A stretch of 64,000 bases of DNA. Source: Candidatus Multivoradales bacterium (GTDB lineage: Bacteria; Acidobacteriota; Thermoanaerobaculia; Multivoradales; JAHEKO01). Positions within the stretch are counted from its first letter, which is position 1. The number at the start of each line of letters is the position of its first letter. The stretch spans positions 1,152,001-1,216,000 of the forward strand of contig CBDFIJ010000004.1 of NCBI GenBank assembly GCA_965248055.1. Reading direction: 5' to 3'. The position numbers and the translations under genes were made by a program. The notes below the pieces were generated by a model. It saw only the letters and a program-made list of their open reading frames with translations, was not told the DNA's origin and made no database searches. Shown here piece by piece: positions 44,240 to 50,483 of this stretch.

Positions 44240-44676
44240 GGTCGAGCGATTCTCCCACGGCCCGTGACTGTTTCCCCGCCATTCTGACCCGGCACGCTGC
44301 ACGAAACTTCATTCACGCTGGCAAGAGCTCTGGCGGGAATTTCGTTTCGCTTCTAGCGAGTCTGAAGTCGATGCTCGGCGACTTCAATACATTGCTTGTT
44401 TTTGCCGAGCGACTCGATCTTGAGAGCAGGCGAGGAGTCTCAGGAGGCGTTGAGTTGACTCTCCACCGGAGGGTCGCAGGATAGGTCCCGGCTCCCTTGC
44501 CCGGCTCCCGCCGGCTCGAGACGGGCACGCGCACCGCGGCGCCAATCCCCAGCTATCAGGCCACTTCATTTGTCGAGGACTCCCTTTGCCAACCACGACC
44601 TTGATAGGGTGGGGAAGGAGTCGGAGTGGCAGCACTACCGGCCAATCACCAGCCAAAAGAAAAAGGAAACTGCACC

Positions 44677-45588
44677 GTGTCGAGTACCAACGATTCTCGC
44701 GGATCTCTCTTACTCTGGGGAGTCATTCCCCTTGCTTTGCTCGGGCTGCTCCTAGCCTGGATTGTCACAACCAACCCGCTCGCCAATTTAGCTGGAACTG
44801 AAACGGGCGCAGGTGCCCGTCTGACACCGGCTTTTCTCTGGGGGTTTGGACTCATCGGTCTCTACGTCGGCGTCTTGCCGGTGATGCTGGGTTTGGTGTG
44901 GCGACCCTTCCTAATGCGCCTGGGACGCGCCGGACGCGACTTCGTGCTCGCACTGACGATTGGACTTCTGATCTACCTGGGCATAGACACCGTCGAGGAT
45001 GGGATCGAGACCATGGAAGAAGCGTTGTCCATGGTGACGACTCTGGGATTGTTCTTTGGCCTCGCGATTGCCGCCTATTTTGCCGTCGAAGCGTTCTCGC
45101 GCTGGGTGGCGCGACGCAGCGGCGGCGGAGCCGATTGGACCACAGCAATGCTGATCGCCCTGGGGATTGGACTGCACAACTTCGGCGAAGGTCTGGCGAT
45201 TGGCGCCGCCTACGCACTCGGCGAAATGGCCTTGGGAGCGATCCTGGTGGTGGGCTTTACCCTGCACAACACCACCGAAGGGCTGGCGATTGTCGCACCA
45301 CTTTCCAAAGAAACCGAAGTCGGAATCGGCAAACTGTTGCTCCTGGGATTGATCGCCGGAGGACCCACCATCCTCGGAGCCTGGCTCGGCGGCATGGTGG
45401 TCTCGCCAGTAACCGGCGGCATCGCCTTGGCACTGGGCGCCGGCGCCATCGCCCAAGTGGTGATCCAACTCCTTGGCTCGGTGTCGAAAGATCGTTCGTT
45501 GAAGAGCTTTCTGTCTTCGCCTGCAGTGATCGTCGGATTGGTCGTCGGCGCCGCGCTGATGTTCGTCACCGGAAAAATCGCCGGTTAA
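44677..45588 (+). CDS. ZIP family divalent metal transporter
   Basis: GIGLHNFGEGLAIG and LHNTTEG motifs; AAGGA upstream of GTG 44677. Confidence 0.9.
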   Translation: MSSTNDSRGSLLLWGVIPLALLGLLLAWIVTTNPLANLAGTETGAGARLTPAFLWGFGLIGLYVGVLPVMLGLVWRPFLMRLGRAGRDFVLALTIGLLIYLGIDTVEDGIETMEEALSMVTTLGLFFGLAIAAYFAVEAFSRWVARRSGGGADWTTAMLIALGIGLHNFGEGLAIGAAYALGEMALGAILVVGFTLHNTTEGLAIVAPLSKETEVGIGKLLLLGLIAGGPTILGAWLGGMVVSPVTGGIALALGAGAIAQVVIQLLGSVSKDRSLKSFLSSPAVIVGLVVGAALMFVTGKIAG

Positions 45589-45995: not shown

Positions 45996-46706
45996 TTAGG
46001 CCTCGAATACCTCTCCAGGCTGCAAGGTCACGACCTCACAGTTCATTTCTCGCGCCACAACTTGCCGGGTGAATTCTTCAGGAGTCCCGGTAAGCAGTGG
46101 GAAGGTGCCCCAGTGAATCGGTACGACCTGACCAACCCCGAGCAAACGGCAAGCCTTGGCCGCCTGAACCGGATCCATGGTGAAGACGTCGCCGATCGGC
46201 AGGAATGCCAATTGGGGTCGATACAGCTCACGAATCAACTGCATGTCTGAAAATAGTGCCGTGTCCCCGGCGTGGTAGAAGTCAATGCCGTCTGGGTTAC
46301 GGATTGCGTAGCCCATCGCTGGGCCACCGTGAATAAAATGGCCACCGTCCAAAACACCAGAAGAATGAACCGCCTGGGTCATCGAGACCTTGAGGCCCAG
46401 CACCTCCAGTGTGCCCCCCAAGTTGCCGTGCATGCAATTCTCCACTCCCTGCTTCTCCAACCAATGGCTGAGTTCCAACGAAGCGACAACCACCGACGGT
46501 CGGTATTTCTTGGCGATCGCCACCGCATCATCGATGTGGTCGAAATGTCCATGAGTGATCAGCATCGCGTCGACCTTTTCGATTGCGCGCAACTTCTCGG
46601 GACAAGCGGGGTTGTTGTCCACCCAGGGATCGATCAACAGCGAGCGTCCGTCCGCTAATTCAACGCCGATCGTCGCGTGGCCGTAATAGGTAAATTTGGT
46701 TGTCAA
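45996..46706 (-). CDS. Metallo-beta-lactamase-fold metal-dependent hydrolase (UPF0173-like)
   Basis: GHA, LIDP, THGHFDH, YHAGDT, LPIGD, PIHWGTF. Confidence 0.92.
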   Translation of the reverse strand: MTTKFTYYGHATIGVELADGRSLLIDPWVDNNPACPEKLRAIEKVDAMLITHGHFDHIDDAVAIAKKYRPSVVVASLELSHWLEKQGVENCMHGNLGGTLEVLGLKVSMTQAVHSSGVLDGGHFIHGGPAMGYAIRNPDGIDFYHAGDTALFSDMQLIRELYRPQLAFLPIGDVFTMDPVQAAKACRLLGVGQVVPIHWGTFPLLTGTPEEFTRQVVAREMNCEVVTLQPGEVFEA

Positions 46707-46876
46707 CTTTTCTCCTTATTGTTGTGATCAAAAGCCTAGCGTGAATCGACAGGAAGTTGAACTCGGCGTCGGTGAAACTTACCGACGCGTCGATGCGTAG
46801 TGAAATCCGAGCAAAGACATGAGGAAAAGCACCATGAACCCCACCAGAAGGTGCGCTTTTCTGTTACTCTTTTTCC

Positions 46877-47374
46877 ATGCGACGGGCCCTCTCCCATCGA
46901 CCCCGTAGCCGGAAGCTAAATCCCATCGTTTGGGGTCTTGTTCGTCTTTCGGCTTTGGTGTTAGTGGGATTCCACGTCCTGCTTCTTGGACGTCGTATCG
47001 CCGATCTGACCATCGCCGACCCTTGGGTTATTGTTCGCTGGTTGGCCACCGTTGCGCTGTTGTTCGTTGGTTGGCGCTATGTACGAAAAGGCGGCTCTCT
47101 GGTCGCCGGCCGCGGCGCACTGGCGTTTTGGATCGCGGTATTCCTGCTGCACGCGTTTGCCCTTCAGCCAGCGCCGGTACCTTTGGCAGAAAGCACGGTC
47201 AACGTTTGGAGTGTAGGGCTACTGCTGGTGCTTTCCTGGGTGGTTCTCAACGCCCTGCAGACTTCAGTCGAAGCACGTAGATACCATCAAACGGAAGACT
47301 TCTTCCTGCTGTTTCATACCGATCAGCTAATCCATTACTCGGGTCGTCCGCCTCCGATCTCCTTCTCCGCATAG
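46877..47374 (+). CDS. Membrane leader protein ending in RPPP (candidate ribosome-arrest peptide)
   Basis: About 4 hydrophobic segments, then ...HYSGRPPPISFSA*; TG-T-TACTCT -10 box 6 nt before ATG. Confidence 0.7.
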   Translation: MRRALSHRPRSRKLNPIVWGLVRLSALVLVGFHVLLLGRRIADLTIADPWVIVRWLATVALLFVGWRYVRKGGSLVAGRGALAFWIAVFLLHAFALQPAPVPLAESTVNVWSVGLLLVLSWVVLNALQTSVEARRYHQTEDFFLLFHTDQLIHYSGRPPPISFSA

Positions 47375-47453
47375 ACGCGGAACCCCCACCCCAATCAGAC
47401 GAAGGTGTCACCCTCGCGGTGACTGACCGAACGATACTCTTTGGAAGGAGATC
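47356..47453 (+). promoter_or_regulatory. Anti-SD/SD long-range pairing (translational attenuator)
   Basis: GATCTCCTTC (47356-47365) is the exact reverse complement of GAAGGAGATC (47444-47453); inner hairpin GTCACC/GGTGAC 47407-47423. Confidence 0.75.
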
Positions 47454-47456
47454 AAC

Positions 47457-50400
47457 ATGCAGGGCACAACGCCTGCTCTCGACAACGTTTCCCAGTCCTC
47501 AATGCAGTCCCCACTGTTGGAAGCAGTGATGCATCTACCGATTCTCACTACGGTTGTTGCGACCGTATTTTGTCTGGTGTTGTTTCGCCGCTATCGCCAG
47601 CGCGGTGGCCTCCACTTGCTGTGGTGGGCGATCGGCATGGCCACCTACGGCCTTGGTACCCTGACCGAGTCGGCGACCACCCTGTTTGGCTGGAACTCCG
47701 ACGTCTTCAAGCTCTGGTATGTCTTCGGCGCCTTTCTCGGTGGCTATCCACTGGCACAAGGAAGCCTTTACTTGCTGGCTAGGAAACGCCGATTGGCCCA
47801 TCTGTCCGCCATCGTCTGCACCACCGCCATCATCATCGGCGCCATCGCCGTGGCGCTATCCCCTGTCACATTTCCAGGAGTTGACGCACGGCTGTCTGGA
47901 TCCGCTCTGAACTGGCAATGGATTCGCGCTATGACCCCATTTATCAATATCTACTCGGCAATCGTCCTCATTGGAGGTGCTCTGGTGTCCGCTTTTCGTT
48001 TTCGTACCACTCCCGACTTGCGCGGCCGTTACCTCGGCAACATCTTGATCGCTATCGGCGCTTTACTGCCCGGGATCGGCGGCACCATGACTCGCATGGG
48101 TCATGTAGAAGTGCTCTACGTAACCGAGCTGTTGGGTCTGTTGTTTATCTTTGCCGGCTATCGCAAATGCGTCGCCGCACCTCAGCCCGCGACCGAACCC
48201 AAGTCGGCGATAGCGTCAGTTACCGCTGTGCTACTTCTACTGATGAGTCTCGCGAGTCCGCAACTGCTGAGTGCGCAAACTAACGATACGGCTCCTCAAG
48301 GAGAAGGAACTCAGGAAACCGTCGACCAGGACCCTAGGTCGGATAGCGGCGACAACGTCTATTACGGAACCGTGACGGTGACCGCGACCGGCAACGAGTC
48401 CGATACCCATCAGGTCGCTCAACCGGTCACCGTGCTCAAAGATATCGACCTGCGGCTGGCCAACAACGCCGCCGACCTGCTGCGCTGGGAACCCGGAGTC
48501 GATGTTGACGGAGTGGGGGCAGTGCAGGTGCGTCCGGTCATTCGTGGCTTGCGCGGCCTGCGCGTGCTGTTCTTGGAGGACGGCCTGCGGATGAACAACT
48601 CGCGTCGCCAAACTGATTTCGGCGAGATCAGTGGTTTGGTGCCCAATGAGTTGGTCGACCGAATCGAAGTGGTGCGCGGCGCGGCTTCAGTGCTGTACGG
48701 TACCGACGCCATTGGTGGCGTAGTCAACATGATCACCCACCGGCCCAGTGTTGGCTCCGGCTGGGCCGGCAATCTAAGGGTTACCGGTGGCAGCGTCGAC
48801 GACTCGACCAAGGTCACTGCGAGCTTAGCGAAACGAAGCGAGCAGTCATCTTGGTCTAGCACCTTTGGCGTGCGTGATGTTTCGGACTACGAGGCGCCCG
48901 CCGGAACCTTTGGCGATATCAAACTGTTGGAAGACACCTCGGTGCTCGACACCGGGGTCGAGGACAACTTCTTCAAAACCATCTACTCCAGAGACTTGAA
49001 CAGCTCCCACAGCTTGATCCTTTCAGCGCGCGGCTACTCGGGAGAAAACAGCGGATTCGGCTTGGTCGAGCCGTCGCTTTTGGGAGACGACAGCTTTCGC
49101 ATTCGCATCCTCTATCCGGAGCAAGATTTTCAAAAGTTCGTCGCCACCCACCTAGGAACAGATCTCGGTTGGGCCGACACGCTGGAAACCAAGCTCTATA
49201 GCCAAAGCAACGAGCGCATCCTGGTCAACGACATCGGCATCAATATCGGGCCGATCTTTCCCGGCGCTCCCAACTCCTCTGTCGACGCGGACACCGTAAA
49301 CAACACCGATATGGATACCTGGGGCGTCCGCTCTGAAGCCGCCAAAGCAGCGGCCGGAGGGCTCTGGACCTACGGCGTCGAAGCATTCTTCGATGATTCC
49401 TTTAACACCGATTCGTCTGTGACTACGACCACCATTCGTGTCCCCTTTCCGCCTTTCGCGTTTGTCAGCCAAAGCACCGACAACATCGCCAATGCCCCCA
49501 ACGCCACTAACTCTTCAATCGGTGCTTTCGCCCAGTACGAGCGATTGATCGGGGACCGCGCCCATGTCAGTCTTGGCACTCGCTATCAGCAGGTCACGAC
49601 CCAAGCAGAACCGACACCAGATCTGGATGTCACCGGACTGGACTTCGACGATTCCCGTTGGGTCGGCGCTGCGACCCTGCGCTATCAGCTCCAGGACAAC
49701 CTGCAATTGGTCGGTTCGCTGGGAAGTTCCTTCCGCATGCCGAGCATCATCGAGCGCCTGTTCAACGGCCCGACCCCCGAAGGAGCTGGCTTTCAACTTC
49801 TAAACCCAAACCTCAAGTCGGAAACCGGTATCAACTACGACATCGGTCTCAAGTATCGGGGTCGGCGCACCTTTGCCGAGGTCACCTATTTCGAGAATCG
49901 CCTGTCCGACGGTATCTCCCAGCACTTCCTCAGCCCAGCCGACGTTGACGCCTTAGCGCAAGACTTGAAAACCGAAATTGCGCTACTGGGACCCAACGTA
50001 TTTGTGGTTCAGCAACGCAATATTGAAGAACTGACCTACACTGGGTTCGAGCTGGCGGGTGGAATCAACCTGGAAAGTGGAGTGACAGTGGGTGGCAACT
50101 TCTCGCTGCTCGACGCCGATCGCACCGACTCCGCCAACCCACCGACCGGCGAAAGCTACGGCAACAAGACCAACCTGTTCCTCCGCTACGCCCCAGCCAG
50201 CAAGCCGTACTATCTAGAATGGCGTATCCGTCACTCGCCGGAAGATGACTTCCCGCTGGCACCCAACCAAGCCCTGCCCCCAGCAGGCCTCAGACTGCCG
50301 TCTTTGACTGTGCAACAACTGGCCGCCGGTTGGACCTTCAGCGGTGAAGGTCGTCTCGGTCATCAACTCAACCTAGTGGTCGACAACCTGAGCGACGATC

Positions 50401-50483
50401 TCTATTCCGAGTCCTCCAACGCCTCCTTCTTCCGACCACAGCCAGGGAGAGGGGCGCGGGTGAGTTATGGGCTGAGGTTCTAA
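47457..50483 (+). CDS. TonB-dependent receptor (heme-receptor-like) with N-terminal multi-TM domain and internal signal peptide
   Basis: About 7 TMs in the first ~240 aa; plug motifs PVIRG, DGL, IEVVRGAASVLYG.DAIGGVVN; FRMP...NPNL; C-terminal YGLRF. Confidence 0.88.
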   Translation: MQGTTPALDNVSQSSMQSPLLEAVMHLPILTTVVATVFCLVLFRRYRQRGGLHLLWWAIGMATYGLGTLTESATTLFGWNSDVFKLWYVFGAFLGGYPLAQGSLYLLARKRRLAHLSAIVCTTAIIIGAIAVALSPVTFPGVDARLSGSALNWQWIRAMTPFINIYSAIVLIGGALVSAFRFRTTPDLRGRYLGNILIAIGALLPGIGGTMTRMGHVEVLYVTELLGLLFIFAGYRKCVAAPQPATEPKSAIASVTAVLLLLMSLASPQLLSAQTNDTAPQGEGTQETVDQDPRSDSGDNVYYGTVTVTATGNESDTHQVAQPVTVLKDIDLRLANNAADLLRWEPGVDVDGVGAVQVRPVIRGLRGLRVLFLEDGLRMNNSRRQTDFGEISGLVPNELVDRIEVVRGAASVLYGTDAIGGVVNMITHRPSVGSGWAGNLRVTGGSVDDSTKVTASLAKRSEQSSWSSTFGVRDVSDYEAPAGTFGDIKLLEDTSVLDTGVEDNFFKTIYSRDLNSSHSLILSARGYSGENSGFGLVEPSLLGDDSFRIRILYPEQDFQKFVATHLGTDLGWADTLETKLYSQSNERILVNDIGINIGPIFPGAPNSSVDADTVNNTDMDTWGVRSEAAKAAAGGLWTYGVEAFFDDSFNTDSSVTTTTIRVPFPPFAFVSQSTDNIANAPNATNSSIGAFAQYERLIGDRAHVSLGTRYQQVTTQAEPTPDLDVTGLDFDDSRWVGAATLRYQLQDNLQLVGSLGSSFRMPSIIERLFNGPTPEGAGFQLLNPNLKSETGINYDIGLKYRGRRTFAEVTYFENRLSDGISQHFLSPADVDALAQDLKTEIALLGPNVFVVQQRNIEELTYTGFELAGGINLESGVTVGGNFSLLDADRTDSANPPTGESYGNKTNLFLRYAPASKPYYLEWRIRHSPEDDFPLAPNQALPPAGLRLPSLTVQQLAAGWTFSGEGRLGHQLNLVVDNLSDDLYSESSNASFFRPQPGRGARVSYGLRF

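Follow-up and report, generated by a model that had tools for sequence, protein, structure and literature searches.

We analysed a 64,000-nucleotide stretch of a Candidatus Multivoradales bacterium genome (assembly GCA_965248055.1, contig CBDFIJ010000004.1, positions 1,152,001 to 1,216,000), hereafter the window. On its plus strand, a small leader gene (46877-47374) precedes a co-oriented open reading frame (ORF; 47457-50483) that encodes a TonB-dependent receptor. An earlier reading of the letters alone (the original prediction) had described the leader product as a membrane peptide carrying a ribosome arrest motif placed on a sequence that masks the Shine-Dalgarno (SD) element of the next gene. 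The leader gene encodes 165 amino acids ending in GRPPPISFSA (the longer terminal stretch is HYSGRPPPISFSA). Its R157-P158-P159-P160 tetrapeptide, encoded by CGT CCG CCT CCG (47345-47356) just as originally read, is a putative arrest site and is followed by ISFSA and a TAG stop codon. The anti-SD arm, GATCTCCTTC (47356-47365, plus strand), begins within the last Pro codon, and the SD arm, GAAGGAGATC (47444-47453, plus strand), carries the SD of the ATG at 47457. We propose that the leader is probably an arrest-peptide sensor of the RxPP type, probably for haem, that switches on the gene that follows it.

The leader gene and its family

AlphaFold2 modelling with 142 homologues placed four helices in the leader protein (residues 16-43, 49-70, 79-95 and 111-143; mean predicted local distance difference test score, pLDDT, of 79), matching the four or so hydrophobic segments of the original prediction; helices 1-3 were modelled at a pLDDT of at least 90. 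The protein contains no Cys. Its two His residues expected within the membrane, in the triplets GFH and LLH, fall in helix 1 (His33, codon 46973-46975, plus strand) and helix 3 (His92, codon 47150-47152, plus strand). Searches for relatives of known type were negative: no Pfam family matched the leader protein at E<=0.01 or at E<=10, DUF2946 (PF11162) not being found up to the latter threshold; no NCBIfam family matched; and Foldseek comparison of the AlphaFold2 model with the PDB returned no analogue (best E 3.6).

Homologs of the leader are numerous. A word-indexed search identified four metagenomic proteins about 50% identical to it, all ending in RPPPISLSA (P0002-P0005), and 24 of 41 related genomes contained a leader match. 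A profile built from 23 members and searched against 1.84 billion proteins recovered 627 representatives at E<=1e-3, of which 555 also passed E<=1e-10, each representative standing for a 50%-identity cluster. A pattern scan of GTDB species genomes yielded 25 loci, all in metagenome-assembled genomes (MAGs) of Acidobacteriota (Thermoanaerobaculia, Vicinamibacteria and 'Candidatus Multivoradales') or in unclassified MAGs, a distribution that marks the source of the window as an acidobacterium of the Thermoanaerobaculia type. A sample of 400 Acidobacteriota genomes added 13 leader loci in other families. By these comparisons, the leader ORF is a real gene of a large and widespread family that has no Pfam or NCBIfam match.

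Conservation is concentrated in the membrane helices and at the C-terminus. Eleven residues (H33, R40, P49, W55, G78, R79, W85, H92, R157, P159 and P160) are invariant in 23 sequences that span the family. Among 142 aligned sequences, H92 (142/142), P159 and P160 are still invariant and the remaining conserved positions, H33 among them, are at least 90% conserved; the transmembrane (TM) His residues, whose conservation the original prediction had proposed to check, are thus kept in homologs. No Cys, Met, Asp or Glu that could serve as a ligand is conserved in the family, and Cys is missing altogether from 58 of 150 members. By the positive-inside rule, the N-terminus and the loop at residues 67-80 are predicted to be cytoplasmic, and H33, R40, P49, W55 and H92 would sit at comparable depth in helices 1-3, near their periplasmic ends.

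The start of the leader gene has the appearance of a transcription start. An extended -10-like box, TGTTACTCT (TGn + TACTCT; 46862-46870, plus strand), ends 6 nt upstream of the ATG, and we could read no SD in front of that codon. A simple sigma-70 scan, which is uninformative for extended -10 promoters, found no -35/-10 pair. For the homologous loci we took as candidate starts the in-frame codons lying 16-48 codons upstream of the helix-1 His. A TAnnnT hexamer began 11-15 nt before such a start in 22 of the 32 loci with a traceable frame, and many of these boxes read TACAAT, TATACT or TAGAAT. This arrangement suggests that the leader transcript is leaderless or near-leaderless, in agreement with the original prediction.

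The R-x-P-P motif and its distance from the membrane

C-termini were counted in the best 149 non-self representatives of the 627. RPPP occurred in 105, RAPP in 32, RGPP in 6 and RQPP in 1, and 5 had no R-x-P-P; R[P/A/G]PP was therefore present in 143 of 149, and Pro occupies the x position in 70% of members. The motif is followed by 1-14 residues and never by none (five in the window protein). At the DNA level it was present in 19/20 loci of relatives, 24/26 further loci and 14/14 distant loci, and the 13 leaders from the 400-genome sample all end in R[A/P]PP plus 1-11 residues. Together with the invariance of R157, P159 and P160 (23/23), these counts bear out the conservation of the motif that the original prediction had anticipated.

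Published work supports an arrest function for such a sequence. RPPP has been reported as the strongest XPPP staller, both in vitro and in vivo, in the absence of elongation factor P (EF-P), and as under-represented in E. coli (PMC4176338). RxPP with Gly, Ala, Ser or Pro at x was recovered as an arrest core, and the Arg is described as irreplaceable in ApdA and ApdP (PMC12992588). According to the same report, proteomes strongly avoid RAPP-like motifs, the exception being positions close to the C-terminus in small secretory or membrane proteins encoded by upstream ORFs (uORFs), and seven such S. lividans proteins were identified as arrest peptides (PMC12992588). The leader shares the features of this class in that its Arg and both Pro residues are conserved and the motif lies near the C-terminus of a small membrane protein encoded 5' of a co-oriented gene; the robust, EF-P-refractory forms RAPP and RGPP have Ala or Gly at x, where the window protein has Pro. 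By analogy with RAPP, the third motif codon would occupy the P site and the fourth the A site. Upstream of the motif, Gly at -8 (72/144), Leu or Phe at -3 (103/144) and Pro, Ser, Ala or Cys at -1 are semi-conserved, which fits a nascent chain that touches the tunnel.

The codons of the motif are also unusual. CCT served as the x codon in 7/14 RPPP loci, compared with 41/528 (7.8%) of the other Pro codons in the same genes. CCT is rare in these GC-rich genomes, and at the x codon it yields CCUCC; its enrichment suggests selection at the RNA level. Rare AGA or AGG Arg codons were seen in the motifs of three loci (L005, L006 and L013).

Several observations count against arrest at the window motif. 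The window's genome (G000) encodes EF-P, which normally relieves stalls at PPP. Two of the five representatives lacking R-x-P-P have LPPP, the others being truncated or divergent; locus L030 likewise carries LPPP in place of RPPP, and in L003 (the same locus as L029) the RPPP codons are out of frame with the helices. The public sequencing runs that contain the locus are four of DNA type from one study, with no RNA run listed. Changing Ala to Pro was partly permissive in ApdA and in E. coli assays of ApdP, as reported; the corresponding ApdP variant in B. subtilis was nearly wild type, at 2.4 versus 1.9 units (PMC12992588). For the GPPP motif of CutF, a stall that overrides EF-P when copper is bound has been described (bioRxiv 10.1101/2025.02.05.636593).

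The frame shift of L003 lies in the variable linker at about 1900-2010 of that locus, where the other frame reads ...LSCRPPPALLL; an indel in the assembly or a natural frameshift would account for it.

A small membrane protein of ordinary function, such as a haem-binding accessory subunit of the uptake system, could also end in R-x-P-P, with the motif serving as a protein-protein contact or a harmless slow spot and the inverted repeat arising by chance from Pro codons. The presence of EF-P, the natural LPPP variants and the anti-SD-like nature of CCN codons are compatible with such a protein. It would leave unexplained why the Arg and two Pro residues are invariant while the adjoining linker varies freely, why the motif always lies 1-14 codons from the stop and always 5' of a co-oriented gene, and why CCT is enriched at the x codon. 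It also sits poorly with the reported avoidance of RAPP-like motifs in proteomes save at such uORF C-termini (PMC12992588). We consider this explanation quite improbable.

The spacing between membrane and motif is constrained. From the last hydrophobic segment to the Arg, the linker has a median length of 32 amino acids (interquartile range 29-36; 5-95% range 24-41; n=140), so the TM-to-RPPP distance raised in the original prediction is held steady while the linker sequence varies. About 32 amino acids is roughly the length of the ribosome exit tunnel; helix 4 would therefore just emerge when the ribosome reaches the motif. The geometry of a helix at the tunnel exit is used by force-released arrest peptides. 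It would equally suit a MifM-like monitor of YidC or Sec insertion that has no ligand, in which the linker of about 32 residues sets the last helix at the tunnel exit upon stalling, the stall reports poor insertion of helix 4, and the His residues are structural; ApcA and MifM are also described as membrane-anchored (PMC12992588). The conserved set of His, Arg, Pro and Trp in helices 1-3 exceeds what a generic insertion substrate would need, and the genes downstream of the leader in the loci surveyed are TonB receptors or hemA operons and never components of the Sec/YidC pathway. A pure insertion monitor is, in our judgement, very improbable. We consider it likely that the leader is a regulatory leader based on arrest.

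Predicted pairing between the putative arrest site and the downstream Shine-Dalgarno sequence

The complementarity between GATCTCCTTC and GAAGGAGATC that the original prediction had noted is perfect over 10 nt, and the pair is the sole inverted repeat of at least 8 nt in 47300-47470. The small hairpin GTCAC-CCTCGCG-GTGAC (47407-47423, plus strand), noted at the same time, is also present, in the loop of the long-range helix. Folding of the RNA 47345-47470 produced the helix (11 bp in the fold) in both the minimum free energy (MFE) and the centroid structure, at -42.8 kcal/mol; the fold had a z score of -3.26, and 0 of 200 dinucleotide shuffles were as stable.

The anti-SD arm occupies +6 to +15 relative to the presumed P-site codon, whose first base is 47351, and so lies inside the footprint of a stalled ribosome. 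Forcing P-12 to P+15 to be unpaired lowered the predicted cost of opening the SD in the window from 9.5 to 1.9 kcal/mol, a drop of 7.5 kcal/mol, whereas a control mask in the middle of the intergenic region gave 10.6 kcal/mol. The claim that a ribosome stalled at RPPP would free the SD thus gains computational support at this locus. Across 34 loci the footprint mask cut SD opening energy by a mean of 1.9 kcal/mol, compared with 0.07 for the control mask, and produced a drop of at least 2 kcal/mol in 14/34 loci versus 5/34 for the control (Wilcoxon p = 5e-5 for footprint versus control, the loci not being independent).

Equivalent helices recur in other loci with differing sequences and registers. 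Locus L013 has a 13-bp helix of GAGGCUCCUAGAC with GUCUAGGAGCCUU that includes a rare AGA Arg codon, and L006 has a helix of CCUCCACC with GGUGGAGG on its Pro codons. In a block test, 36 positions around the arrest site were scored for anti-SD duplex formation against other blocks; the arrest-site block surpassed at least 95% of the others in 11/34 loci. A metagenome scan for the DNA of close relatives, in which covariation of the 10-bp helix could be followed, returned one distant locus only (L064).

The same analyses set limits on this interpretation, and the following results speak against it. Under the footprint mask, SD opening changed by less than 2 kcal/mol in 20/34 loci. The block test gave p>0.25 in 16/34 loci, so that an anti-SD helix is not general; the expectation that homologs keep the anti-SD was supported in the 11 significant loci and failed in these 16, where the arrest site was nothing special. 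The SD was paired locally in about 10 of 20 MFE folds. When the 5' arm was removed from the window RNA, the SD region formed just a weak local hairpin (z = -0.42), in which part of the SD can still be paired. Finally, CCN Pro codons are inherently complementary to GGAGG, and part of the pairing signal thus comes free with the coding sequence.

A second route from stalling to receptor expression must be weighed here, since it would explain the two-thirds of loci that have no anti-SD helix. As in CruR, a ribosome stalled at RPPP would block loading of Rho on C-rich RNA after the stop codon, and release would lead to Rho-dependent termination before the receptor; the SD helix would be secondary, or both would act together. 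CruR, which carries RAPP and lies 5' of the TonB transporter BfrG, is reported to act in this way (PMC9426467), and Rho is encoded in the window's genome. The intergenic regions are long (68-206 nt), as this route would favour, and strongly structured (MFE -44 to -133 kcal/mol), which is unfavourable for rut sites. The C/G ratio is 1.53 in the first 60 nt of the window's intergenic region and averages 1.20 over 20 loci, compared with 1.05 in leader ORFs; this bias is weak, and the ratio falls below 1 in L003, L012, L013 and L017. Within the window, moreover, the SD helix is the dominant predicted structure. We regard Rho-based control as unlikely.

A GC-rich hairpin (5-9 bp with a 4-7 nt loop) of differing sequence lies mid-intergenically in L001, L002, L006, L011, L012, L015 and L018-L020. 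It has no U-tract and is thus not an intrinsic terminator.

As judged from the folding models, SD unmasking appears well supported at the window locus and recurrent in the family, and it is not universal. That it is the output at the window locus we hold to be slightly more probable than the converse.

Haem genes, the receptor and the proposed sensor

The ORF at 47457-50483 encodes 1008 amino acids in a single frame. Its first 248 or so residues (47457-48200, plus strand) form a multi-helix membrane domain of about 245 amino acids that we call bigN. A signal-peptide-like segment, KSAIASVTAVLLLLMSLASPQLLSA (residues 249-273; 48201-48275, plus strand), with a K/R-rich cytoplasmic end, a hydrophobic core and LSA|Q, joins it to the TonB-dependent receptor (48276-50483, plus strand), whose Plug (residues 319-422) and barrel (residues 540-978) Pfam domains score above their cut-offs. 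The original prediction that the next gene encodes a TonB receptor was correct as to the receptor, but missed its fusion behind the membrane domain. We found no stop codon and no convincing internal start at the 48201-48275 junction. In 5/14 loci (L008, L010, L013, L015 and L020), separate genes encode the membrane protein and the receptor, and each gene has an SD, an ATG and a signal peptide of its own; most of the remaining loci, the window and its sister genome among them, have the two in a single frame uninterrupted by a stop. The comparison suggests that the fused ORF encodes a polyprotein cut by signal peptidase, or that it has an unseen internal start.

Homologs of bigN, at 55-80% identity, were present in L002, L006-L008, L010-L013, L015 and L017-L020. 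The domain has no Pfam match, a search at E<=10 giving only noise, and the Atlas clusters closest to it consist of hypothetical proteins from Actinomycetota and Chloroflexota. A relationship to HemX/CcsA was considered and dropped, as BLASTP detected no similarity (E 1.3). Because it lies between a haem-linked sensor and a receptor, bigN is a candidate inner-membrane permease.

Synteny of the leader with these genes is strong. In 20/20 loci of relatives the receptor lies downstream in the same orientation, either behind the 245-amino-acid membrane protein (14) or immediately after the leader (6). Of the 25 GTDB loci, 23 have one or both of these genes downstream; one contig ends early, and L036 differs. 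Among the 13 loci of the 400-genome sample, a TonB receptor is next in 9, hemA directly in 3 and hemX-hemA in 1. The downstream gene has the same orientation as the leader in all informative loci, the leader always standing first in an operon in Acidobacteriota, and genes beyond the receptor are mostly on the opposite strand, with no further conserved operon partner. Distant receptors are just 25-46% identical to that of the window, and the leader is therefore linked to receptors of more than a single lineage. Those of L053, L056 and L058-L063 have after the signal peptide a segment, 'ATIRGxVxDxSGAxxP', which we take to resemble a carboxypeptidase-regulatory-like N-terminal domain.

On the other side of the leader, a ZIP/ZupT-like transporter gene (44626-45588, plus strand) and an MBL-fold hydrolase gene (45996-46706, minus strand) lie just 5' of it. 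The same neighbours occur at L002, in the sister genome, and at L038, another family member, and are not found at most loci. Genes further out in the window (encoding DNA ligase, M24 and M56 peptidases, Fic and others) gave no additional clue.

Comparative evidence connects the leader to haem. One part of it is the set of five loci in which hemA follows the leader: the four of the 400-genome sample and L036 (Vicinamibacteria), where a leader ending in ARPPPL is followed by genes that Pfam assigns to Cytochrom_C_asm (HemX/CcsA-like), HemA, HemC and HemD. Another is the apparent lack of haem synthesis in the genomes that pair leader and receptor. The window's genome (97.7% complete, 4 contigs) gave no match to GlutR_N, ALAD, Porphobil_deam or Ferrochelatase; it encodes five COX1 homologues (haem-copper oxidases) and two Cytochrom_C_asm proteins. 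With haem oxidases and no match for hemA, hemB, hemC or ferrochelatase, the organism depends on haem yet seems unable to synthesise it by the standard pathway. Its gene content suggests haem auxotrophy combined with respiration that relies on haem.

This pattern extended to the relatives, where absence from a MAG means that the gene was not found. A strong leader match (E<1e-4) was present in 22 of the 41 relatives; hemA was not found in 21 of these 22 genomes and was found in 16 of the other 19, a nearly complete mutual exclusion of leader and hemA. Among genomes at least 90% complete, 14 of 15 leader-positive ones had no hemA match. Of the 24 other genomes in the family to which the window belongs, 21 likewise had no hemA match, and the three that did (G002, which is flagged as unpublished, G008 and G018) are all leader-negative. 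Three genomes (G005, G014 and G035) had neither a strong leader nor hemA; G035 and G028 have weak leader matches. The receptor itself agrees best, among NCBIfam models, with the haem/haemoglobin TonB-hemin model TIGR01785 (E 4e-60, 203.9 bits, versus 117.4 bits for the siderophore model).

Other findings weaken the link to haem. One relative, G038, has both leader and hemA. The compared genomes are kin, and the two-by-two table overstates their independence. Of nine distant genomes with a leader and receptor, five had no hemA found, three had it and one gave a partial 35-bit match. The receptor's 203.9 bits fall below the TIGR01785 cut-off of 316.85.

The simplest reading of the downstream genes is that the regulated function is haem supply, by uptake or by synthesis. 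Two membrane His residues together with a conserved Arg and Trp would make a plausible bis-His porphyrin site, in which His33 and His92 are conjectured to lie close together. We also considered the same sensor mechanism with a metal ion (Fe, Zn or Cu) or protoporphyrin as its ligand in place of haem. Iron governs haem synthesis in many bacteria, and the window, like L002 and L038, has a ZIP-family transporter gene upstream of the leader, at a distance of 1.3 kb in the window. In addition, published uORFs with RAPP or RGPP before TonB receptors and metal genes have been proposed to sense copper or other metals through Cys and His (PMC12992588; PMC9426467). Against a metal stand the conservation of only two His, with no other conserved ligand residue and many members free of Cys, and the conserved Arg and Trp, which would suit a porphyrin pocket better. 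The hemA operons, and the missing hemA in genomes with leader and receptor, point to the tetrapyrrole itself. A metal ion or protoporphyrin as the ligand seems rather unlikely, and of the two ligands named in the original prediction, 'heme or a metal', haem is favoured by the operons in which hemA follows the leader and by the pattern of haem auxotrophy. For haem or a tetrapyrrole as the signal we see an even chance.

The conserved motif, the gene order, the anti-SD/SD helix and the associations with haem genes and auxotrophy are all read by sequence comparison; from them we infer stalling, its release by force or ligand, the identity of the ligand and the direction of regulation as follows. 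The leader gene would act in cis as the sensor of an operon of two cistrons, whose transcript would have no 5' leader. The leader product would put three conserved helices in the inner membrane, with His33, Arg40, Pro49, Trp55 and His92 clustered toward the periplasmic face, and the ribosome would stall at R-P-P-P about 30 residues past the fourth helix. Covering 47356-47365, the stalled ribosome would prevent pairing with the SD of the ATG at 47457, and the membrane-domain/receptor gene would be translated. Upon release and termination, the 10-11 bp helix would re-form and the receptor would be off. The likeliest trigger of release is a pull from helix 4 as it docks on the ligand-loaded helix bundle, the ligand most probably being haem or another tetrapyrrole held by the two His. 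Scarcity of haem would thus turn on haem uptake and, in relatives, haem synthesis likewise. We consider the mechanism as a whole reasonably probable. The sequence features named in the original prediction were all present, and no result ran counter to its model, each element of which gained comparative support of a purely computational kind.

In its fullest form, which we offer tentatively, the leader would be the first haem-responsive arrest peptide. A leaderless four-helix bundle, inserted co-translationally, would read haem in a bis-His pocket (with Arg and Trp) close to the periplasmic face before its C-terminus had left the ribosome, and haem loading would dock helix 4 and pull the stall loose. 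In the absence of haem, the stalled ribosome would maintain expression of the next gene, a haem receptor in auxotrophs or a hemA operon in prototrophs, and the 245-amino-acid protein, made as a polyprotein with the receptor, may be a new haem permease of the inner membrane.

Parts of this scheme have precedents. MifM of Bacillus subtilis is a membrane-anchored arrest peptide whose stall is released by insertion and unmasks the SD of the next gene, as proposed here; unlike the leader, it has a single helix, monitors YidC and uses a multi-site arrest sequence that is not RxPP. CruR of Bordetella pertussis (Bp2923, DUF2946) resembles the leader in being a small uORF with RxPP a few residues from its stop, in an operon with a TonB receptor and a long GC-rich intergenic region, and its published model, in which the ligand relieves arrest and turns the receptor off, follows the logic proposed for the leader (PMC9426467). 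According to the published description, CruR carries a signal peptide and is exported, has its CXXC copper site at 45 residues from RAPP, and acts through Rho-dependent termination (PMC9426467). The window leader has no CXXC or CxxxC site, no match to PF11162, and four long predicted TM helices instead of one cleavable signal; it has two membrane His, RPPP and an explicit SD/anti-SD helix.

CutF of Rhodobacter capsulatus (DUF2946, 5' of cutO) has the output proposed for the leader: its stall is reported to melt an SD stem-loop, and also to be modulated by EF-P (bioRxiv 10.1101/2025.02.05.636593). CutF is, however, described there as secreted, binding Cu via CxxxC, with a stall induced by its ligand, whereas the leader is probably released by its ligand, is an integral membrane bundle by prediction, and has receptor or hemA targets. 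ApdA, ApdP and ApcA have an R-x-P-P core whose Arg cannot be replaced, they stall when its third residue occupies the P site and Pro the A site, and the core lies at the C-terminus of small secretory or membrane proteins, an arrangement presumed to hold for the leader as well; they differ in lying 5' of Sec/YidC-pathway genes, where the leader family precedes genes with no role in protein localisation, and in having Ala or Gly at x, which is Pro in most of the leader family (PMC12992588). SLIV_18480 of Streptomyces lividans is similar in outline: it has four predicted TM segments and conserved His, ends in an arrest motif and precedes a gene related to metals (PMC12992588). Its published description gives three conserved His together with one Met and two Cys, and a predicted copper site. 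In the leader family, which was detected only in Acidobacteriota records, two His are conserved and neither Cys nor Met is.

The original prediction suggested an undescribed class of arrest-peptide sensor. This holds for the family and not for the class as such, because RAPP-like uORFs before TonB receptors have been published: Fujiwara et al. (2025) describe RAPP/RGPP uORFs enriched before TonB receptors, almost all with signal peptides, and four-helix Streptomyces examples (PMC12992588). Members of the leader family with RAPP may already be in the gene lists of that report (PMC12992588, Fig. 4). Our literature search, which covered text other than supplementary gene lists, found nothing on a haem-responsive bacterial arrest peptide, on the leader family, or on uORF control of hemA in Acidobacteriota. 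What is new, as far as sequence comparison goes, is a membrane-sensor family without a Pfam or NCBIfam match, with two invariant or nearly invariant TM His and no Cys motif, together with the dominance of RPPP, the predicted leaderless transcripts and the double link to haem uptake and hemA operons.

Arrest peptides that sense extracytoplasmic small molecules are few, and the precedents, CruR and CutF, both respond to copper. In a recent survey, numerous RAPP/RGPP uORFs that still lack an explanation precede TonB receptor genes and genes related to metals (PMC12992588), and searches restricted to those two motifs would let an RPPP-dominant core escape. The leader family would add an integral-membrane sensor fold of at least 627 sequence clusters, haem as a probable ligand class, and hemA-dependent tetrapyrrole synthesis as a regulated pathway. 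It would also provide a handle on the control of haem uptake in abundant soil and sediment Acidobacteriota that are unable to make haem.

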